The notes beneath the pieces were generated by a model. That model was given only the letters and a program-made list of their open reading frames with translations, had not been told where the DNA came from and did no database searches. Both the position numbers and the translations under genes were made by a program. From Eledone cirrhosa (Eukaryota): 63,830 nucleotides of DNA. Below, in pieces: positions 11,933-62,904 of this stretch. The stretch is taken from NCBI GenBank assembly GCA_964016885.1, contig OZ024752.1, positions 37,572,171-37,636,000 on the forward strand. Direction: 5' to 3'. Each line of letters starts with the position of its first letter. The stretch's first letter is position 1.

Positions 11933-14900
11933 ATTGGAATAAATGCTCTGAAATAGCGATATATATGTGAATATAGACATAGAATATTCGAAAATATTCT
12001 GTATGTTTATAATAAACATTTTGAAGACCTAATCGCTATAGAATAGAATACGTCACGTATTACAATTAGATTCTCGATAAAAGCAAGGGAAGCAATCTAC
12101 GCGTTTCATTCTCGTAAGAAATCATCAGGACCACATATCCAGTGCTTTTATCGAGAATGACACAGCTAGAGACTTATAGAATACTTAGCTGTGTACAGGA
12201 ACTGGTTTGAAAGAGCGGTTGCCGGTCCGGCAGAAATTAGAAATTGGAATAAATGCTCTGAAATAGCGATATATATGTGAATATAGACATAGAATATTCG
12301 AAAATATTCTGTATGTTTATAATAAACATTTTGAAGACCTAATCGCTATAGAATAGAATACGTCACGTATTACAATTAGATTCTCGATAAAAGCAAGGGA
12401 AGCAATCTACGCGTTTCATTCTCGTAAGAAATCATCAGGACCACATATCCAGTGCTTTTATCGAGAATGACACAGCTAGAGACTTATAGAATACTTAGCT
12501 GTGTACAGGAACTGGTTTGAAAGAGCGGTTGCCGGTCCGGCAGAAATTAGAAATTGGAATAAATGCTCTGAAATAGCGATATATATGTGAATATAGACAT
12601 AGAATATTCGAAAATATTCTGTATGTTTATAATAAACATTTTGAAGACCTAATCGCTATAGAATAGAATACGTCACGTATTACAATTAGATTCTCGATAA
12701 AAGCAAGGGAAGCAATCTACGCGTTTCATTCTCGTAAGAAATCATCAGGACCACATATCCAGTGCTTTTATCGAGAATGACACAGCTAGAGACTTATAGA
12801 ATACTTAGCTGTGTACAGGAACTGGTTTGAAAGAGCGGTTGCCGGTCCGGCAGAAATTAGAAATTGGAATAAATGCTCTGAAATAGCGATATATATGTGA
12901 ATATAGACATAGAATATTCGAAAATATTCTGTATGTTTATAATAAACATTTTGAAGACCTAATCGCTATAGAATAGAATACGTCACGTATTACAATTAGA
13001 TTCTCGATAAAAGCAAGGGAAGCAATCTACGCGTTTCATTCTCGTAAGAAATCATCAGGACCACATATCCAGTGCTTTTATCGAGAATGACACAGCTAGA
13101 GACTTATAGAATACTTAGCTGTGTACAGGAACTGGTTTGAAAGAGCGGTTGCCGGTCCGGCAGAAATTAGAAATTGGAATAAATGCTCTGAAATAGCGAT
13201 ATATATGTGAATATAGACATAGAATATTCGAAAATATTCTGTATGTTTATAATAAACATTTTGAAGACCTAATCGCTATAGAATAGAATACGTCACGTAT
13301 TACAATTAGATTCTCGATAAAAGCAAGGGAAGCAATCTACGCGTTTCATTCTCGTAAGAAATCATCAGGACCACATATCCAGTGCTTTTATCGAGAATGA
13401 CACAGCTAGAGACTTATAGAATACTTAGCTGTGTACAGGAACTGGTTTGAAAGAGCGGTTGCCGGTCCGGCAGAAATTAGAAATTGGAATAAATGCTCTG
13501 AAATAGCGATATATATGTGAATATAGACATAGAATATTCGAAAATATTCTGTATGTTTATAATAAACATTTTGAAGACCTAATCGCTATAGAATAGAATA
13601 CGTCACGTATTACAATTAGATTCTCGATAAAAGCAAGGGAAGCAATCTACGCGTTTCATTCTCGTAAGAAATCATCAGGACCACATATCCAGTGCTTTTA
13701 TCGAGAATGACACAGCTAGAGACTTATAGAATACTTAGCTGTGTACAGGAACTGGTTTGAAAGAGCGGTTGCCGGTCCGGCAGAAATTAGAAATTGGAAT
13801 AAATGCTCTGAAATAGCGATATATATGTGAATATAGACATAGAATATTCGAAAATATTCTGTATGTTTATAATAAACATTTTGAAGACCTAATCGCTATA
13901 GAATAGAATACGTCACGTATTACAATTAGATTCTCGATAAAAGCAAGGGAAGCAATCTACGCGTTTCATTCTCGTAAGAAATCATCAGGACCACATATCC
14001 AGTGCTTTTATCGAGAATGACACAGCTAGAGACTTATAGAATACTTAGCTGTGTACAGGAACTGGTTTGAAAGAGCGGTTGCCGGTCCGGCAGAAATTAG
14101 AAATTGGAATAAATGCTCTGAAATAGCGATATATATGTGAATATAGACATAGAATATTCGAAAATATTCTGTATGTTTATAATAAACATTTTGAAGACCT
14201 AATCGCTATAGAATAGAATACGTCACGTATTACAATTAGATTCTCGATAAAAGCAAGGGAAGCAATCTACGCGTTTCATTCTCGTAAGAAATCATCAGGA
14301 CCACATATCCAGTGCTTTTATCGAGAATGACACAGCTAGAGACTTATAGAATACTTAGCTGTGTACAGGAACTGGTTTGAAAGAGCGGTTGCCGGTCCGG
14401 CAGAAATTAGAAATTGGAATAAATGCTCTGAAATAGCGATATATATGTGAATATAGACATAGAATATTCGAAAATATTCTGTATGTTTATAATAAACATT
14501 TTGAAGACCTAATCGCTATAGAATAGAATACGTCACGTATTACAATTAGATTCTCGATAAAAGCAAGGGAAGCAATCTACGCGTTTCATTCTCGTAAGAA
14601 ATCATCAGGACCACATATCCAGTGCTTTTATCGAGAATGACACAGCTAGAGACTTATAGAATACTTAGCTGTGTACAGGAACTGGTTTGAAAGAGCGGTT
14701 GCCGGTCCGGCAGAAATTAGAAATTGGAATAAATGCTCTGAAATAGCGATATATATGTGAATATAGACATAGAATATTCGAAAATATTCTGTATGTTTAT
14801 AATAAACATTTTGAAGACCTAATCGCTATAGAATAGAATACGTCACGTATTACAATTAGATTCTCGATAAAAGCAAGGGAAGCAATCTACGCGTTTCATT

Positions 14901-15597
14901 CTCGTAAGAAATCATCAGGACCACATATCCAGTGCTTTTATCGAGAATGACACAGCTAGAGACTTATAGAATACTTAGCTGTGTACAGGAACTGGTTTGA
15001 AAGAGCGGTTGCCGGTCCGGCAGAAATTAGAAATTGGAATAAATGCTCTGAAATAGCGATATATATGTGAATATAGACATAGAATATTCGAAAATATTCT
15101 GTATGTTTATAATAAACATTTTGAAGACCTAATCGCTATAGAATAGAATACGTCACGTATTACAATTAGATTCTCGATAAAAGCAAGGGAAGCAATCTAC
15201 GCGTTTCATTCTCGTAAGAAATCATCAGGACCACATATCCAGTGCTTTTATCGAGAATGACACAGCTAGAGACTTATAGAATACTTAGCTGTGTACAGGA
15301 ACTGGTTTGAAAGAGCGGTTGCCGGTCCGGCAGAAATTAGAAATTGGAATAAATGCTCTGAAATAGCGATATATATGTGAATATAGACATAGAATATTCG
15401 AAAATATTCTGTATGTTTATAATAAACATTTTGAAGACCTAATCGCTATAGAATAGAATACGTCACGTATTACAATTAGATTCTCGATAAAAGCAAGGGA
15501 AGCAATCTACGCGTTTCATTCTCGTAAGAAATCATCAGGACCACATATCCAGTGCTTTTATCGAGAATGACACAGCTAGAGACTTATAGAATACTTA
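11933..15597 (-). mobile_element. 310-bp tandem array (11 full units + 255-bp partial), one type I hammerhead per unit; retrozyme / Penelope pLTR-like
   Basis: ATTGGAATAAATGC recurs at 11933, 12243, 12553 ... 15343 (period 310); units look identical by eye; array starts directly at a (CT)n(AT)n tract; HHR on the minus strand of each unit; no long ORF. Confidence 0.9.
12070..12158 (-). ncRNA. Type I hammerhead in first array unit (repeats every 310 bp, 12 copies)
   Basis: Reverse complement of 15809-15897. Confidence 0.85.
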
Positions 15598-15995
15598 TAC
15601 GTGACGTATTCTATTCTATAGCGATTAGGTCTTCAAAATGTTTATTATAAACATACAGAATATTTTCGAATATTCTATGTCTATATTCACATATATATCG
15701 CTATTTCAGAGCATTTATTCCAATTTCTAATTTCTGCCGGACCGGCAACCGCTCTTTCAAACCAGTTCCTGTACACAGCTAAGTATTCTATAAGTCTCTA
15801 GCTGTGTCATTCTCGATAAAAGCACTGGATATGTGGTCCTGATGATTTCTTACGAGAATGAAACGCGTAGATTGCTTCCCTTGCTTTTATCGAGAATCTA
15901 ATTGTAATACGTGACGTATTCTATTCTATAGCGATTAGGTCTTCAAAATGTTTATTATAAACATACAGAATATTTTCGAATATTCTATGTCTATA

Positions 15996-15999
<4 letters not shown>
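15598..15999 (+). mobile_element. Inverted ~400-bp (1.3 unit) copy of the 310-bp repeat, closing the insertion into (AT)n
   Basis: Reverse complement of the array sequence begins at TACGTGACGTATT (15598) and ends at CTATATTCA, followed by (TA)n. Confidence 0.9.
15809..15897 (+). ncRNA. Type I hammerhead ribozyme, minimal/dimeric type (palindromic stem III ACGCGU)
   Basis: ATTCTCGATAAAAGCA..GTGGTC CTGATGA tTTCT-tacg-AGAAt GAAA CGCG TA^GATTGC..TGCTTTTATCGAGAAT: intact core, wobble-rich proximal stem I, perfect 16-bp distal stem I; predicted cut after 15869. Confidence 0.85.
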
Positions 16000-16038
<39 letters not shown>

Positions 16039-16082
16039 ATATATAAATATATACATATATGTATATATATATATACTTATAA

Positions 16083-16218
<136 letters not shown>

Positions 16219-16359
16219 GTACAAACACATTTATTAAAACAACAGATTCTTTGCTTAAACTTTAATCTGTTATTTTAATAAATATTTGATCTACGGTTCT
16301 TATATATTTGATATATATTTATCCTTATCGAGCCCTCTTTGGATTTTAGTCTTCAATAT

Positions 16360-17068
<709 letters not shown>

Positions 17069-20704: not shown

Positions 20705-21300
20705 ATTACTGCCTCTGTAATAACAACAATTAAAAGCCAGCTACAAATACATTTTAATGTGAGTATCTCTTTAGCAAAGAATGTTTGTTTTGATGGACAA
20801 CCCTACGTTGGTAATAAAAATATATTGTTTCTCACCGTAGAAGCGTTCCAAATCAATAAATGTATCTTAAACCATTGTTAGTGACTCGACAGATAACTCC
20901 CCATACAATGGTATCGTTTATCAACTGGTATATAATATATGTGTGTATATATATCATATAGGAATCTACTGCAAGTAACAGGAATTAAGTAAAAGAAAAG
21001 AACCGAAACCAGTTGAAGTGATAGGCTTAACGTGATAGCTATTTGATCAGAGTCTGTGAGAAGGTGTGTTGTGTGTGTGTGTTGTGTGTGTGTGTGTGTG
21101 TGCGTGCGTGTGTGTGTGTGTGTGTTTGTGTGTGTTTGTGTGTGTGTGTGTGTGTAAGCATATATACAAACATAAATGTAAATGTGTTTGTGAATGTATA
21201 TATTTAGTTTGTCCGTAGATGTGTAAAGAAACTACACTATACATAGCCTATTTCATGTTTTTGTAAAGTGGATGTGTATAACAAAAGGGAAGAAACAACT

Positions 21301-21370
<70 letters not shown>

Positions 21371-21598
21371 TGGCTGCCAACTCGTTTTCGAGTACGGACA
21401 CTACTTTATATCCATGTAGGAGAACCCCTACCGATGTGCTGAACAAGTGTGACTTTTTAGTCCAGCCAGCGACTTGAAAACTCTGGTACAAACACTACAC
21501 TTGTGACAATTATTGACACATAGTGCTGGGCCCATGGTACCATGTGACGACAAGTGCAGAGAGATCTCCAGATACAAAGCAATGCCTGTGCCGTGAAG

Positions 21599-21671
<73 letters not shown>

Positions 21672-21821
21672 CATACATACACACACACATATATATATGT
21701 GTGTGTATGAGAATGTTCGTGTGCGTACGTGTGTAGTTTTTTTACACATCTACGGACAAACTGAATATATACATTCACAAACACATTTACATTTATGTTT
21801 GTATATATGCTTACACACACA

Positions 21822-21906
<85 letters not shown>

Positions 21907-22067
21907 CACACCTTCTCACAGACTCTGATCAAATAGCTATCACGTTAAGCCTATCACTTCAACTGGTTTCGGTTCTTTTCTTTTACTTAATTCCTGCTAC
22001 TTTCAGTAGATTCCTATATGATATATATACACACATATATTATATACCGGTTGATAAACGATACCAT

Positions 22068-22098
<31 letters not shown>

Positions 22099-22580: not shown

Positions 22581-22777
22581 CTCTACCCCCACTCGTTAAG
22601 CGAATGAGGCCTGGGATCTTGTCGATCTACTGTCGATATATAAATATATATGTGTGTGTTATCGTGTGTGTGTATGTGTGTGTGTGTATGAGTGTGTTGG
22701 GTTCAATCGGGGGGGGGGGGGTAACCAAAGTAAGTAAGGTACTCAATACATAGCAGAGTATAAATATTTAATATGGA

Positions 22778-22901
22778 AATATAGAAATGCCTTCTACGGG
22801 ACTAGAACTGTTTCATTCAAAATGAATCATCAGGAAAGCCTTTTCCTGATGATTTCCTTCGAATGAAACAGTTCTAGTCCTGTAGAAGCCATTTCTATAT
22901 T
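22778..22901. mobile_element. Short palindromic insert with CTGATGA..GAAAC half-HHR in both arms (same family 51750-51930)
   Basis: Inversion apex lies just 5' of CTGATGA (22846; 51882 in the second copy); both copies share GTAACCA.AGTAAGTAAGGTACTCAATACAT. Confidence 0.7.
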
Positions 22902-22983
22902 ATATATATATATATATAAATGAAAGGTATAGAAATTGTTTTAGCGAGAAGCTAACAGTATTCCATAACATATATATTATTCC

Positions 22984-23118: not shown

Positions 23119-23154
<36 letters not shown>

Positions 23155-23162
<8 letters not shown>

Positions 23163-23322
23163 AGATCAAAAGATGGTTAAAGGAGTTCCATGTATTTTAT
23201 TATGCGCATTTCAAAAACAAACATCATCATGCAATAATATTATTGCATGATGATGTTTGTTTTTGAAATGCGCATAATAAAATACATGGAACTCCTTTAA
23301 CCATCTTTTGATCTTATATTAT
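23155..23322. repeat. Perfect 168-bp palindrome (no spacer) at the edge of an (AT)n tract
   Basis: Centre GCAATAAT|ATTATTGC at 23238/23239; arms carry GAAA TGCGCA TA. Confidence 0.9.
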
Positions 23323-23403
23323 GTATACTCCAGTCCTACAAACTGTAGAGTGCTTCTTATCCGATATCTGCATTGCTTTATTGTACTACAATAAAACTCA
23401 CCT

Positions 23404-62446: not shown

Positions 62447-62476
<30 letters not shown>

Positions 62477-62477
<1 letters not shown>

Positions 62478-62904
62478 CGATATTAAACAAATGGAAACTA
62501 TATTTATAAAACCATATTTATTTCATTATACATATTTCGGGGATACCATATTAAAAATATGGCATGCCTTCGTCAGATAAAATACAATATATAAACAGTT
62601 TTATAAATAATTTTGACGTACCATAAATAGGAGCTACCATTATGTCGGAAGCTGGTTTGGTAGCTCCTATTTATGGTACGTCAAAATTATTTATAAAACT
62701 GTTTATATATTGTATTTTATCTGAAGAAGGCATGCCATATTTTTAATATGGTATCCCCGAAATATGTATAATGAAATAAATATGGTTTTATAAATATAGT
62801 TTCCATTTGTTTAATATCGTATATCTACTCCAAAAACTTGTCGAGTGCTTTATATCAGTTATAAAATATTTACTTGTTGTAACCCAACAATTTTAAATAA
62901 AACT

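Follow-up and report, generated by a model that had tools for sequence, protein, structure and literature searches.

The window, a 63,830-nucleotide stretch of contig OZ024752.1 in the Eledone cirrhosa assembly GCA_964016885.1, carries an array of a 310-bp unit that consists of two head-to-head arms embedded in (AT)n (Table 1, where u denotes the position within the unit). The long arm (3665 bp) shows no mismatches across its 11 full copies (TRF 100%), the number of units being that of the assembly, and the short arm B covers 403 bp from u128 to u36, overlapping arm A by 1 nt at a central joint that forms no fold-back hairpin. The unit has about 35% GC and its longest stop-free frame is 59 codons on the circularised unit; neither an LTR-like layout nor an ORF with RT and GIY-YIG is seen in it. 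To the left the array adjoins a short (TA) tract preceded by (TC)n/(TCTA)n and to the right it runs directly into (AT)n, and as both ends lie inside (AT)n the target-site duplication is unreadable. The 310-bp period, the identity of the roughly 12 units, the lack of a long ORF and the fusion of both outer ends to (AT)n had all been pointed out in the initial annotation and hold. The inverted arm that it described is also there, with 1.30 units, but instead of an add-on it appears to be a second cDNA, primed independently at the opposite end of the target and begun at a fixed second start.

Table 1. Features of the array in the window, in window coordinates.
Feature	Position	Strand	Remarks
Left (AT)n target remnant	11920..11932		Adjoins (TC)n/(TCTA)n; from sequence and left junction
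Arm A	11933..15597	+	11.82 identical 310-bp units, start at site A (u1); + strand reads as cDNA of the hammerhead strand
35-bp 'tail', stretch between start sites A and B	11933..11967	+	Left end u1 versus right end u36; at left end only
12 type I hammerheads, one per unit (u138-u226)	12070..15568	-	Cuts predicted at 12098/12097 and every 310 bp to 15508/15507
Head-to-head joint	15597..15597		Inner ends u255 and u128; 1-nt microhomology
Arm B	15597..15999	-	1.30 units; cDNA on - strand from site B (u36) at 15999
RT-start region, RNA sense	15628..15760	+	Begins ~70 nt ahead of site B, ends ~60 nt beyond site A
Arm B hammerhead, RNA sense	15809..15897	+	16-bp distal stem, helix I, helix II, palindromic helix III
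Hammerhead core	CUGAUGA 15839-15845; GAAA 15860-15863	+	Predicted cut after 15869
Two A>G marks in helix I, RNA sense	15835 (u200) and 15874 (u161)	+	In all 13 window hammerheads
Right (AT)n target tract	16000..16217		From sequence

Twelve copies of the hammerhead core lie on the minus strand in the long arm, and a thirteenth is on the plus strand (15839-15869). The type I core is intact in 13 of 13 copies, each with the 16-bp distal stem and the palindromic stem III that had been noticed from the first, and the cut site predicted here is the one proposed earlier. Helix III is ACGCGU, with a computed self-dimer of -9.5 kcal/mol. A U.U mismatch at the base of helix II and two G.U pairs private to the window locus had been overlooked. 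Rfam hammerhead models gave no match at the gathering threshold, nor at E<=5 on 15600-17000. The core is invariant in 16 aligned sister units, and the helices covary across older sister families (91.5% paired, double changes in 15 of 25 pairs, 0 of 500 shuffles); each unit contains a type I hammerhead that is predicted to cleave itself. For Xenopus, eight of nine dimers have been reported not to cleave (10.64898/2026.07.22.740005).

Copies of the unit are dispersed through the genome, with 17,196 units in the assembly at many other loci, and we estimate that there are about 1,500 young insertions of the 310-base hammerhead repeat, most of them two-armed, head-to-head and in (AT)n. A non-coding tandem with a hammerhead in each unit, forming a dispersed multicopy family in a genome that also contains Penelope-like elements (PLEs), bears out the earlier assignment to the retrozymes. 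Among 98 insertions 87 were two-armed and 11 one-armed, and none was tail-to-tail; family-wide, both arms read as cDNA of the hammerhead strand, and the (TA)n target bias is present across the insertions. Sites A and B lie about 26-41 nt apart, and all 103 two-armed insertions have one arm starting at each of them. By selection route these are 86, 14 and 3: the rule was found in 86/86 chosen by unit identity (18) or by the B junction (68), in 14/14 chosen by the A junction without matching the B pattern, and in 3/3 chosen by neither junction. The commonest A start is u1 (58 of the outer ends seen), and exact junctions of (AT)n with u1 number 1003 in the assembly, those with u27 or u36 1191. 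L063.1 (a duplicate), L039 (at a contig start and of low quality) and L051.0 (full version used instead) were dropped before the counts, and L234 fell below the length filter. A 163-bp tandem without a hammerhead also exists.

The same layout is found in sister families and in autonomous PLEs, and the PLE-type ends proposed initially were recovered; an inverted second copy, a one-sided tail and a (TA)n target are all present. An assembly or long-read fold-back artefact might be suspected from the perfect identity of the units and from a unit number that is only as assembled. However, more than 100 other loci have fixed outer starts but varying inner ends and haplotypes, the layout is common to those other families, and contigs from a public run include 15 further plus-to-minus joints as well as loose ends in (AT)n, although the run is possibly the assembly's own sample; an artefact is therefore hardly credible. 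Three runs of unrecorded type from other organisms each gave a single closed contig of 340 nt (310 plus an overlap of 30), in which a circle is indistinguishable from a collapsed tandem or carry-over; the haplotypes of these contigs also occur in this assembly. When compared with 14 sister units, the RT-start region has a mean identity of 68-89% against 43-55% for the hammerhead helices. This best-kept primary sequence among the sister families is a candidate cis-element for a PLE protein.

The two arms of an insertion resemble each other. A seven-site haplotype is common to both arms in 93 of 96 insertions, and in a permutation across 81 loci 80 were concordant, compared to a mean of 12.6 and a maximum of 27 in 20,000. 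The inner ends scatter and are joined through 0-8 nt of microhomology or short filler; their densest 13-nt window holds 20/208 (scan p 0.07) and they are mildly skewed (Rayleigh p 0.006, n=170). L028, L040, L063.0, L077, L033, L027 and L266 were excluded from the inner-end or sporadic-variant counts. Head-to-head arms, fixed A and B starts, a common haplotype, scattered inner ends and a covarying hammerhead lead us to read the array as one non-LTR retrozyme insertion, in which a single, probably circular 310-nt RNA would have been copied by a PLE in trans through twin target-primed rolling-circle reverse transcription; we give this reading a probability of about two in three (0.68). It is likely that reverse transcription went round from both cut ends, a route hitherto only proposed. 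The initial claims of a recent single insertion and of a single-unit, probably circular template both agree with the family-wide tests.

Haplotype changes inside an arm (L033, L338, L350, L027 and L022) indicate that a single site may involve two RNA molecules, and thus the concordance of the arms alone is no proof of a single molecule. Concordance without two reverse transcriptions would also follow if only one arm was primed on RNA and the second was copied from DNA or by fold-back self-priming. Such a model with palindromic junctions exists for Penelope inversions (PMC3846280), and many tiny Hydra insertions are near-palindromic. In this family, however, the distance between the inner ends is uniform on the circle (7/85 within 15 nt, 8.5 expected, KS p 0.92), the second arm starts at the other fixed site every time, neither short arm of L053 or L345 is contained within the other, and either arm can be longer (A in 18/34), making a copied second arm improbable. 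A linear self-cleaved monomer, from whose 5' end the reverse transcriptase jumps to its own 3' end at each turn, would give equal single-unit homogeneity, and template switches are known in these insertions. We consider it slightly less probable again, as dozens of seamless jumps would be needed per insertion while the arm ends are not piled at the cut (6/208 within u160-171) and scars there are not in excess (3/49 sporadic variants).

The A>G marks bear on the template of the proposed twin priming. The window hammerhead haplotype is found in 13 of the 17,196 units, all inside this insertion; a source locus with it could sit on an unassembled haplotype or in an ancestor. At u161 the A>G change occurs in 51 units at nine places, on both arms at six of them and on four backgrounds, and all other changes at u161, u162 and u163 are three single units each. 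Counted in the RNA sense, with the direction set against the commonest letter and the excess spotted after the fact, A>G makes up 13/36 array-fixed variants versus 8/104 sporadic ones (Fisher p 1.4e-4), or 11 against 4 without u181 and u200 (p 0.026). The 16 core sites are changed by 0/36 fixed and 6/104 sporadic variants. Strand-biased A>G together with spared core sites suggests passage through RNA, and from this pattern in the DNA the template RNA was probably ADAR-edited. In the literature we found no report of RNA-sense A>G marks fixed across arrays.

Twin priming could instead have used a long linear uncleaved multimeric transcript, or a multimeric circle, of a source array. L073 and L231 each have a variant that both arms share but that is confined to one unit per arm, a pattern easier to reconcile with a multi-unit template or subsequent gene conversion than with a monomer circle; axolotl retrozymes also accumulate as multimers (PMC7229834), and PAc uses uncleaved RNA. 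On a multimer, however, changes at the RNA stage would be sporadic, and A>G is instead enriched array-wide and depleted among the sporadic variants. In addition, the assembly offers no source array for the window haplotype, none of the arms in the insertions read extends through a source junction or flanking sequence (L040 has a local junction duplication), and a strong common stop is absent. We find a multimer unlikely, if less so than the other alternatives. Arrays enlarged in place from short PLE-end insertions by unequal exchange and homogenised by gene conversion would correspond to the satellite model (10.64898/2026.07.22.740005), in line with the 163-bp tandem and with the repeated variants of L077 (45 units) and L054_55, that is, local amplification after insertion. 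As a general account this is a shade less probable than even the linear monomer: the arrays show hardly any mutations (92 sporadic variants over 253 kb) yet differ between loci, 17 of 19 locus-specific variants are on both inverted arms, the A>G bias and the spared core point elsewhere, and 131/172 arms already have at least two units (median arm length 3.6 units).

For the single-circle reading a PLE protein acting in trans is needed. As to this part of the earlier proposal, the PLE-type insertion signature stood, but no PLE sharing the retrozyme termini was found: none of the ORF-bearing PLEs among 60 loci or 1.32 Mb of masked loci has the RT-start region or these termini. The neighbour at 16505-16983 was rejected as driver, being another non-coding tandem family of ~640 bp. 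The genome has 150 scored GIY-YIG matches and intact PLE frames, and a protein search gave 1407 unnamed relatives; Pfam returned no family for three PLE proteins. A Hydra-clade PLE (P0001, P0002 and P0004; L208-L219) has 12 intact 758-codon frames that are 98-99% identical and contain the motifs RWR, DKT, CxCx5C, CxxC and CxH (definitions of PMC8557442). Its autonomous copies follow a near-plus-far start rule in 19/19, and its hammerhead core (9206 matches in a ribozyme pattern search) is identical to that of the retrozyme over 26 nt bar a 2-nt loop gap. By this core alone the intact Hydra-clade PLE is the best driver candidate. Several Neptune-like PLE families with intact or young copies are also present in the genome, and these too may be the driver.

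We rejected direct derivation of the retrozyme from the Hydra pLTR, as only the core matches and the start spacing differs (~68 nt against 26-41): the pLTR has no homology to the RT-start region, and no in-sense match to it was found beyond the 26-nt ribozyme core. The inner ends of 23/32 Hydra copies fall within 8 nt of a single position, the pattern expected from a linear 5' end. Upstream of its ribozyme the retrozyme has a segment that matches the Hydra pLTR in antisense (0/2000 and 0/500 shuffles; 14/20 in fixed register). Birth from a fold-back Hydra mini-insertion was nevertheless rejected, since older sister families with other ribozyme helices already have the upstream segment; the idea is also weakened by the antisense match being partly complementarity to the family's own core. 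The match is a faint lead for an ancient origin.

In the mechanism that we propose, tandem arrays would be transcribed and adjacent hammerheads would cut as dimers via the palindromic helix III, after which a host ligase would close monomer circles that are slow to re-cleave and whose long stems would now and then be A-to-I edited. A PLE protein, probably as a dimer, would bind the conserved RT-start region and cut the (AT)n tract on both strands; one cDNA would begin at A and the other at B via 2-9 nt of AT microhomology. Each reverse transcriptase would make several turns with strand displacement, occasionally switching to another circle, before the two cDNA 3' ends are joined and the gaps filled. 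A broader statement seems to us evenly balanced: that two reverse transcriptases chase round one closed 310-nt RNA from both ends of the break, that the A-to-I edits of the circle enter every unit and feed heritable ribozyme variation, and that the rule of two ends and two starts also explains why PLEs in general have an inverted copy and a tail on one side.

Whether animal retrozymes enter genomes by rolling-circle reverse transcription of circular RNA or by local amplification has been an open question (PMC7229834; 10.64898/2026.07.22.740005), as has the origin of tandem-plus-inverted PLE insertions with a one-sided tail (PMC8557442). The present family provides, by our estimate, 1,500 events within a single genome that are almost free of mutations; they have fixed starts and single-molecule marks, and a conserved candidate binding region and intact PLE genes are also available for testing, so that both questions become direct in vitro experiments. 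The data suggest that RNA editing may be fixed in DNA via a circular retro-intermediate and point to a reverse transcriptase that goes round small RNA circles dozens of times as it copies them into a cut site.

The family provides genomic tests of a mechanism of insertion that had so far only been proposed. As in other metazoan non-LTR retrozymes (PMC7229834; PMC7761336; 10.64898/2026.07.22.740005), the unit is a non-coding tandem within 150-450 bp and below 50% GC, with one type I hammerhead per unit and PLEs in the same genome. Its helix III is like that of axolotl HHR_Amex1 (one pair and a palindromic tetraloop), and HHR_Amex2 has the same U.U at the base of helix II. In contrast to those retrozymes, each insertion here comprises two concatemers placed head to head, whose starts at A and B within (AT)n are fixed. 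The circRNA as RT template is a hypothesis in PMC7229834, whose main text lacks the words 'inverted' and 'rolling'. Retrozyme repeats have been reviewed as having no conserved motif that would indicate the driver (PMC7761336), whereas the sister families studied here share a conserved RT-start region. PLE insertions carry a 30-40 bp tail at one end (PMC8557442, PMC11167929), the (TA)n target bias is known for the Naiad, Hydra and Neptune types, and PAc nicks and extends both strands in vitro from two start sites (PMC11167929). Our insertions share the inverted 5'-truncated second copy, the tail at one end and the (TA)n target (PMC8557442, PMC11167929, PMC3846280), as well as two RT start sites with both strands probably nicked and extended, but they have no ORF and each arm consists of a 310-nt unit copied over many turns. 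Starts here use short AT microhomology, while for PAc a start without homology was reported (PMC11167929), and unlike in the self-priming model (PMC3846280) the inner junctions are not palindromic. The Hydra-clade PLE of this genome is like the retrozyme in (TA)n target, two-arm rule and hammerhead core but unlike it in RT-start sequence, start spacing and its inner stop pile-up. In the L1 twin priming of Ostertag and Kazazian, two target ends reportedly prime on the RNA, and microhomology links the resulting cDNAs to give an inversion. There the RNA is linear and the first cDNA stops at the position of the second primer; here about 35 nt separate the starts, and either arm continues for many turns beyond the start of the other.

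The insertion in the window joins an arm of tandem 310-bp retrozyme units (arm A) to a shorter inverted arm (arm B), with a short (TA) tract on one flank and a long (AT)n tract on the other, and the roughly 12 identical units plus inverted arm in (AT)n described in the initial annotation were borne out by the measured copy numbers (table; unit positions u1-u310 are counted from 11933 along the + strand). As that annotation also held, there is no long ORF, the longest frame on the circularised unit being 59 codons, and every unit has one type I hammerhead, in which a distal stem of 16 bp extends the 6-bp helix I. Helix II has 4 bp on top of a U.U mismatch, and the palindromic helix III allows just 1 bp within the monomer vs 6 bp between two copies. 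Both oddities have been described in hammerheads of the axolotl, for which efficient cleavage of the dimers is reported (PMC7229834). The 310-nt monomer folds better than its shuffles (z -3.15; 0/100 as good), and Rfam gave no hammerhead match at the gathering threshold or, over 15600-17000, at E up to 5.

Features of the window, with strand and basis where available
Feature	Position or number	Strand	Basis
Arm A, 11.82 identical 310-bp copies	11933-15597	+	tandem-repeat and sequence comparison
Arm B, 1.30 inverted copies, 1-nt overlap with arm A	15597-15999	-	sequence comparison
Hammerhead in arm A	12 copies	-	
Hammerhead in arm B	15839-15869	+	
Mini insertion, different non-coding family, head-to-head in (AT)n, 30-34 bp tail	16505-16983		
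Fold-back mini insertions, two Hydra pLTR subfamilies	51748-51927, 22700-22905		
Two-armed insertion in (AT)n, another hammerhead-bearing end type	50506-51335 (core at 51033)		
Inverted-repeat insertions between microsatellites (among others)	4221-4701, 5042-5909, 20903-22072, 23150-23327, 62470-62827		
Homogeneous minisatellite, 57 bp x17, 99%, one frame open for 359 codons	59653-60622		
Homogeneous minisatellite, 79 bp x8.9	37478-38184		
Homogeneous minisatellite, 139 bp x10.7	43181-44661		

The three minisatellites are without (AT)n flanks, and no hammerhead was seen in them.

Loci were read as follows: 18 chosen by identity, 79 by the B junction on one chromosome, 7 stretches missed by the B-junction pattern and 20 with an A junction but no B match. 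Two arms were present in 87/98 insertions, every time as a + arm followed by a - arm, and one arm in 11/98; in this constant order both arms read as cDNA of the hammerhead strand, each with its 5' end at a flank and its 3' end towards the centre. The outer ends are confined to two zones, u304-u11 (A) and u27-u41 (B), where they sit at AT or near-AT microhomologies. One A end was combined with one B end in each of the 86 two-armed insertions whose outer ends could both be seen, in 14/14 of the set chosen by A junction (the remaining loci there being 3 one-armed and 3 cut off by the stretch limits) and in 3/3 among stretches missed by the B-junction pattern. The A-to-B offset is the PLE (Penelope-like element) 'tail', known as 30-40 bp on one end of PLE insertions (PMC8557442) and in vitro as the distance separating the two RT start sites used by a protein, a predicted dimer, that both nicks and extends each strand (PMC11167929). 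Central junctions (n=87) showed a 1-8 nt overlap in 43 cases, filler in 31 and blunt joining in 13. The two inner ends are mutually independent (KS p 0.92, n=85), which counts against fold-back self-priming, the model given for PLE inversions (PMC3846280).

We favour a monomer circle as the template, copied by rolling-circle reverse transcription from both ends of the target, with a probability of about two in three. Arms have a median length of 3.6 units, 131/172 holding at least 2, and their inner ends are spread round the unit with only a mild skew (Rayleigh p 0.006, n=170): 6/208 lie near the predicted cut, and the densest 13-nt window, u77-89, holds 20/208 (scan p 0.07). In the control, the autonomous Hydra-clade PLE of the same genome, 23/32 copies selected for containing the ribozyme core end within 8 nt upstream of it, a pile-up as expected for run-off from a linear 5' end; this common stop follows a TATA box by about 30 nt, the start site itself being putative. 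Against a monomer template, a variant occurs in a single unit of each arm at two loci (L073 and L231), where a template of two or more units would fit, as would conversion.

The way variants are shared points to a single RNA molecule behind each insertion. The same seven-site haplotype was found on both arms in 93/96 cases (permutation on 81 insertions: mean 12.6, maximum 27), and 17 of the 19 variants fixed in one sampled locus alone are on both arms. The ribozyme haplotype of the window occurs in exactly 13 units assembly-wide, every one in the window insertion, and differs from the nearest common one by two RNA-sense A>G changes, both in helix I. Counting matching units, u161 A>G was seen 51 times, spread over 9 places, 6 of which have it on both arms, and over four loop/stem backgrounds; the other changes at u161, u162 and u163 are each limited to 3 single units. 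In a post hoc comparison over 122 insertions, A>G made up 13/36 array-wide vs 8/104 sporadic substitutions (Fisher p 1.4e-4), and exceeded U>C by 13 to 4 (p 0.009), or 11 to 4 (p 0.026) minus two sites of doubtful direction. ADAR enzymes have sequence-context preferences, and the 5' neighbour was U or A in 9/13 array-wide cases. Strand, stem position and context suggest that these changes would be A-to-I editing, although in any single case the source locus could conceivably be absent from the haploid assembly. Where a change arose in RNA and every unit on either arm carries it, one unit must have been copied repeatedly from both ends. Two sets of results count against the favoured reading. 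The haplotype switches inside one arm at L033, L338, L350, L027 and L022; at the first two, the inner units of arm A carry the arm B haplotype, so two RNAs can be present. Identical sporadic variants recur at L077 (45 units) and L054_55, pointing to local amplification at a later stage.

Older sister families comprise 14 full units of 301-320 bp with 62-70% identity. In 16 aligned ribozyme regions, which are related and were given the structure of the window copy, the core is invariant, the named helices are 91.5% paired and 15/25 pairs show double changes, a level reached by 0/500 shuffles, with slid controls at 44-54%. The 16 core sites took 0/36 array-wide vs 6/104 sporadic substitutions (122 insertions); this avoidance is not significant alone over the whole circle (1.9 expected) and is 0/11 within the ribozyme. 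One sister family (L308, L331-L334) still forms tandem and inverted insertions with its core decayed to UUGAUAA, and cleavage may have become dispensable for it. At L316-L318 (G000:C1:56078495-56078849), three 163-bp units in tandem, which belong to a sister family, have lost the hammerhead and kept the RT-start region, the candidate cis-element around sites A and B. Two sets of loci (L040, L046, L238, L255; L235, L246) have a 1-nt helix I insertion, 2-4 bases from the predicted cut, fixed in every unit (period 311).

The search of the genome for further copies, proposed initially, gave 17,196 matches to a 17-nt ribozyme pattern. Exact (AT)n junctions numbered 1191 with u27 or u36 and 1003 with u1 (controls 0), and because u1 represents about two thirds of A starts, the total is estimated at 1,500 insertions. 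The family is very young, with 92 sporadic variants in 253 kb, which upholds the recent insertion proposed at the outset. The window insertion is real, young and informative on mechanism. Runs X3, X4 and X6 (organisms B, C and D) each yielded a single closed contig of 340 nt that matches the unit at 98-99% identity and has haplotypes also found in Eledone cirrhosa, compatible alike with close relatives, diet, carry-over or transfer; X6 additionally had a sister-family piece.

In its testable marks the window element is a metazoan non-LTR retrozyme with PLE-type ends. Tandem cDNA from a circular RNA template has been a hypothesis (PMC7229834, PMC7761336), and a 2026 preprint ties vertebrate retrozymes to pLTRs, with molluscs unsampled, and explains retrozyme arrays by local amplification (10.64898/2026.07.22.740005). 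The literature searched, mostly papers outside subscription, gave no report of PLE twin priming, of double concatemers in inverted arrangement or of retrozyme arrays with fixed editing marks.

Each of the two Hydra pLTR mini insertions in the window lies in (AT)n and has two ribozyme cores in head-to-head orientation, and the inverted-repeat insertions between microsatellites are probably further products of PLE type. The family of the 16505-16983 element forms tandem units of about 635-645 bp at L095, L102 and L104 and has 2086 candidates; the element has CUGAUGA close to its end, and a search of it for the GAAA half-core found none.

The driver of the retrozyme is likely a PLE, and the genome is PLE-rich. 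At L187 (G000:C1:36034000-36043000) an intact PLE frame of 1097 codons, its N-terminal part enlarged by an insert rich in asparagine, has a 98.6% identical inverted copy, and a retrozyme insertion (L050) is directly behind its end. The Hydra-clade family, assigned via the motifs of PMC8557442, has 9206 exact ribozyme copies and many intact 758-codon frames (12 read, 98-99% identical), and targets (AT)n. A driver of this clade is a tentative proposal, somewhat under even odds. A PLE with shared termini, as anticipated initially, was not found among the loci searched: Hydra follows the near-plus-far start rule in 19/19 two-armed copies and shares the core, but lacks the RT-start region, which is the best-conserved part among retrozyme sister units and was found in no ORF-bearing element among the PLE loci searched. 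Compared directly, the Hydra and retrozyme ribozyme cores are equal over 26 nt bar a 2-nt loop gap, whereas the Hydra start sites are about 68 nt apart, unlike those of the retrozyme, and the RT-start region is without any counterpart in Hydra.
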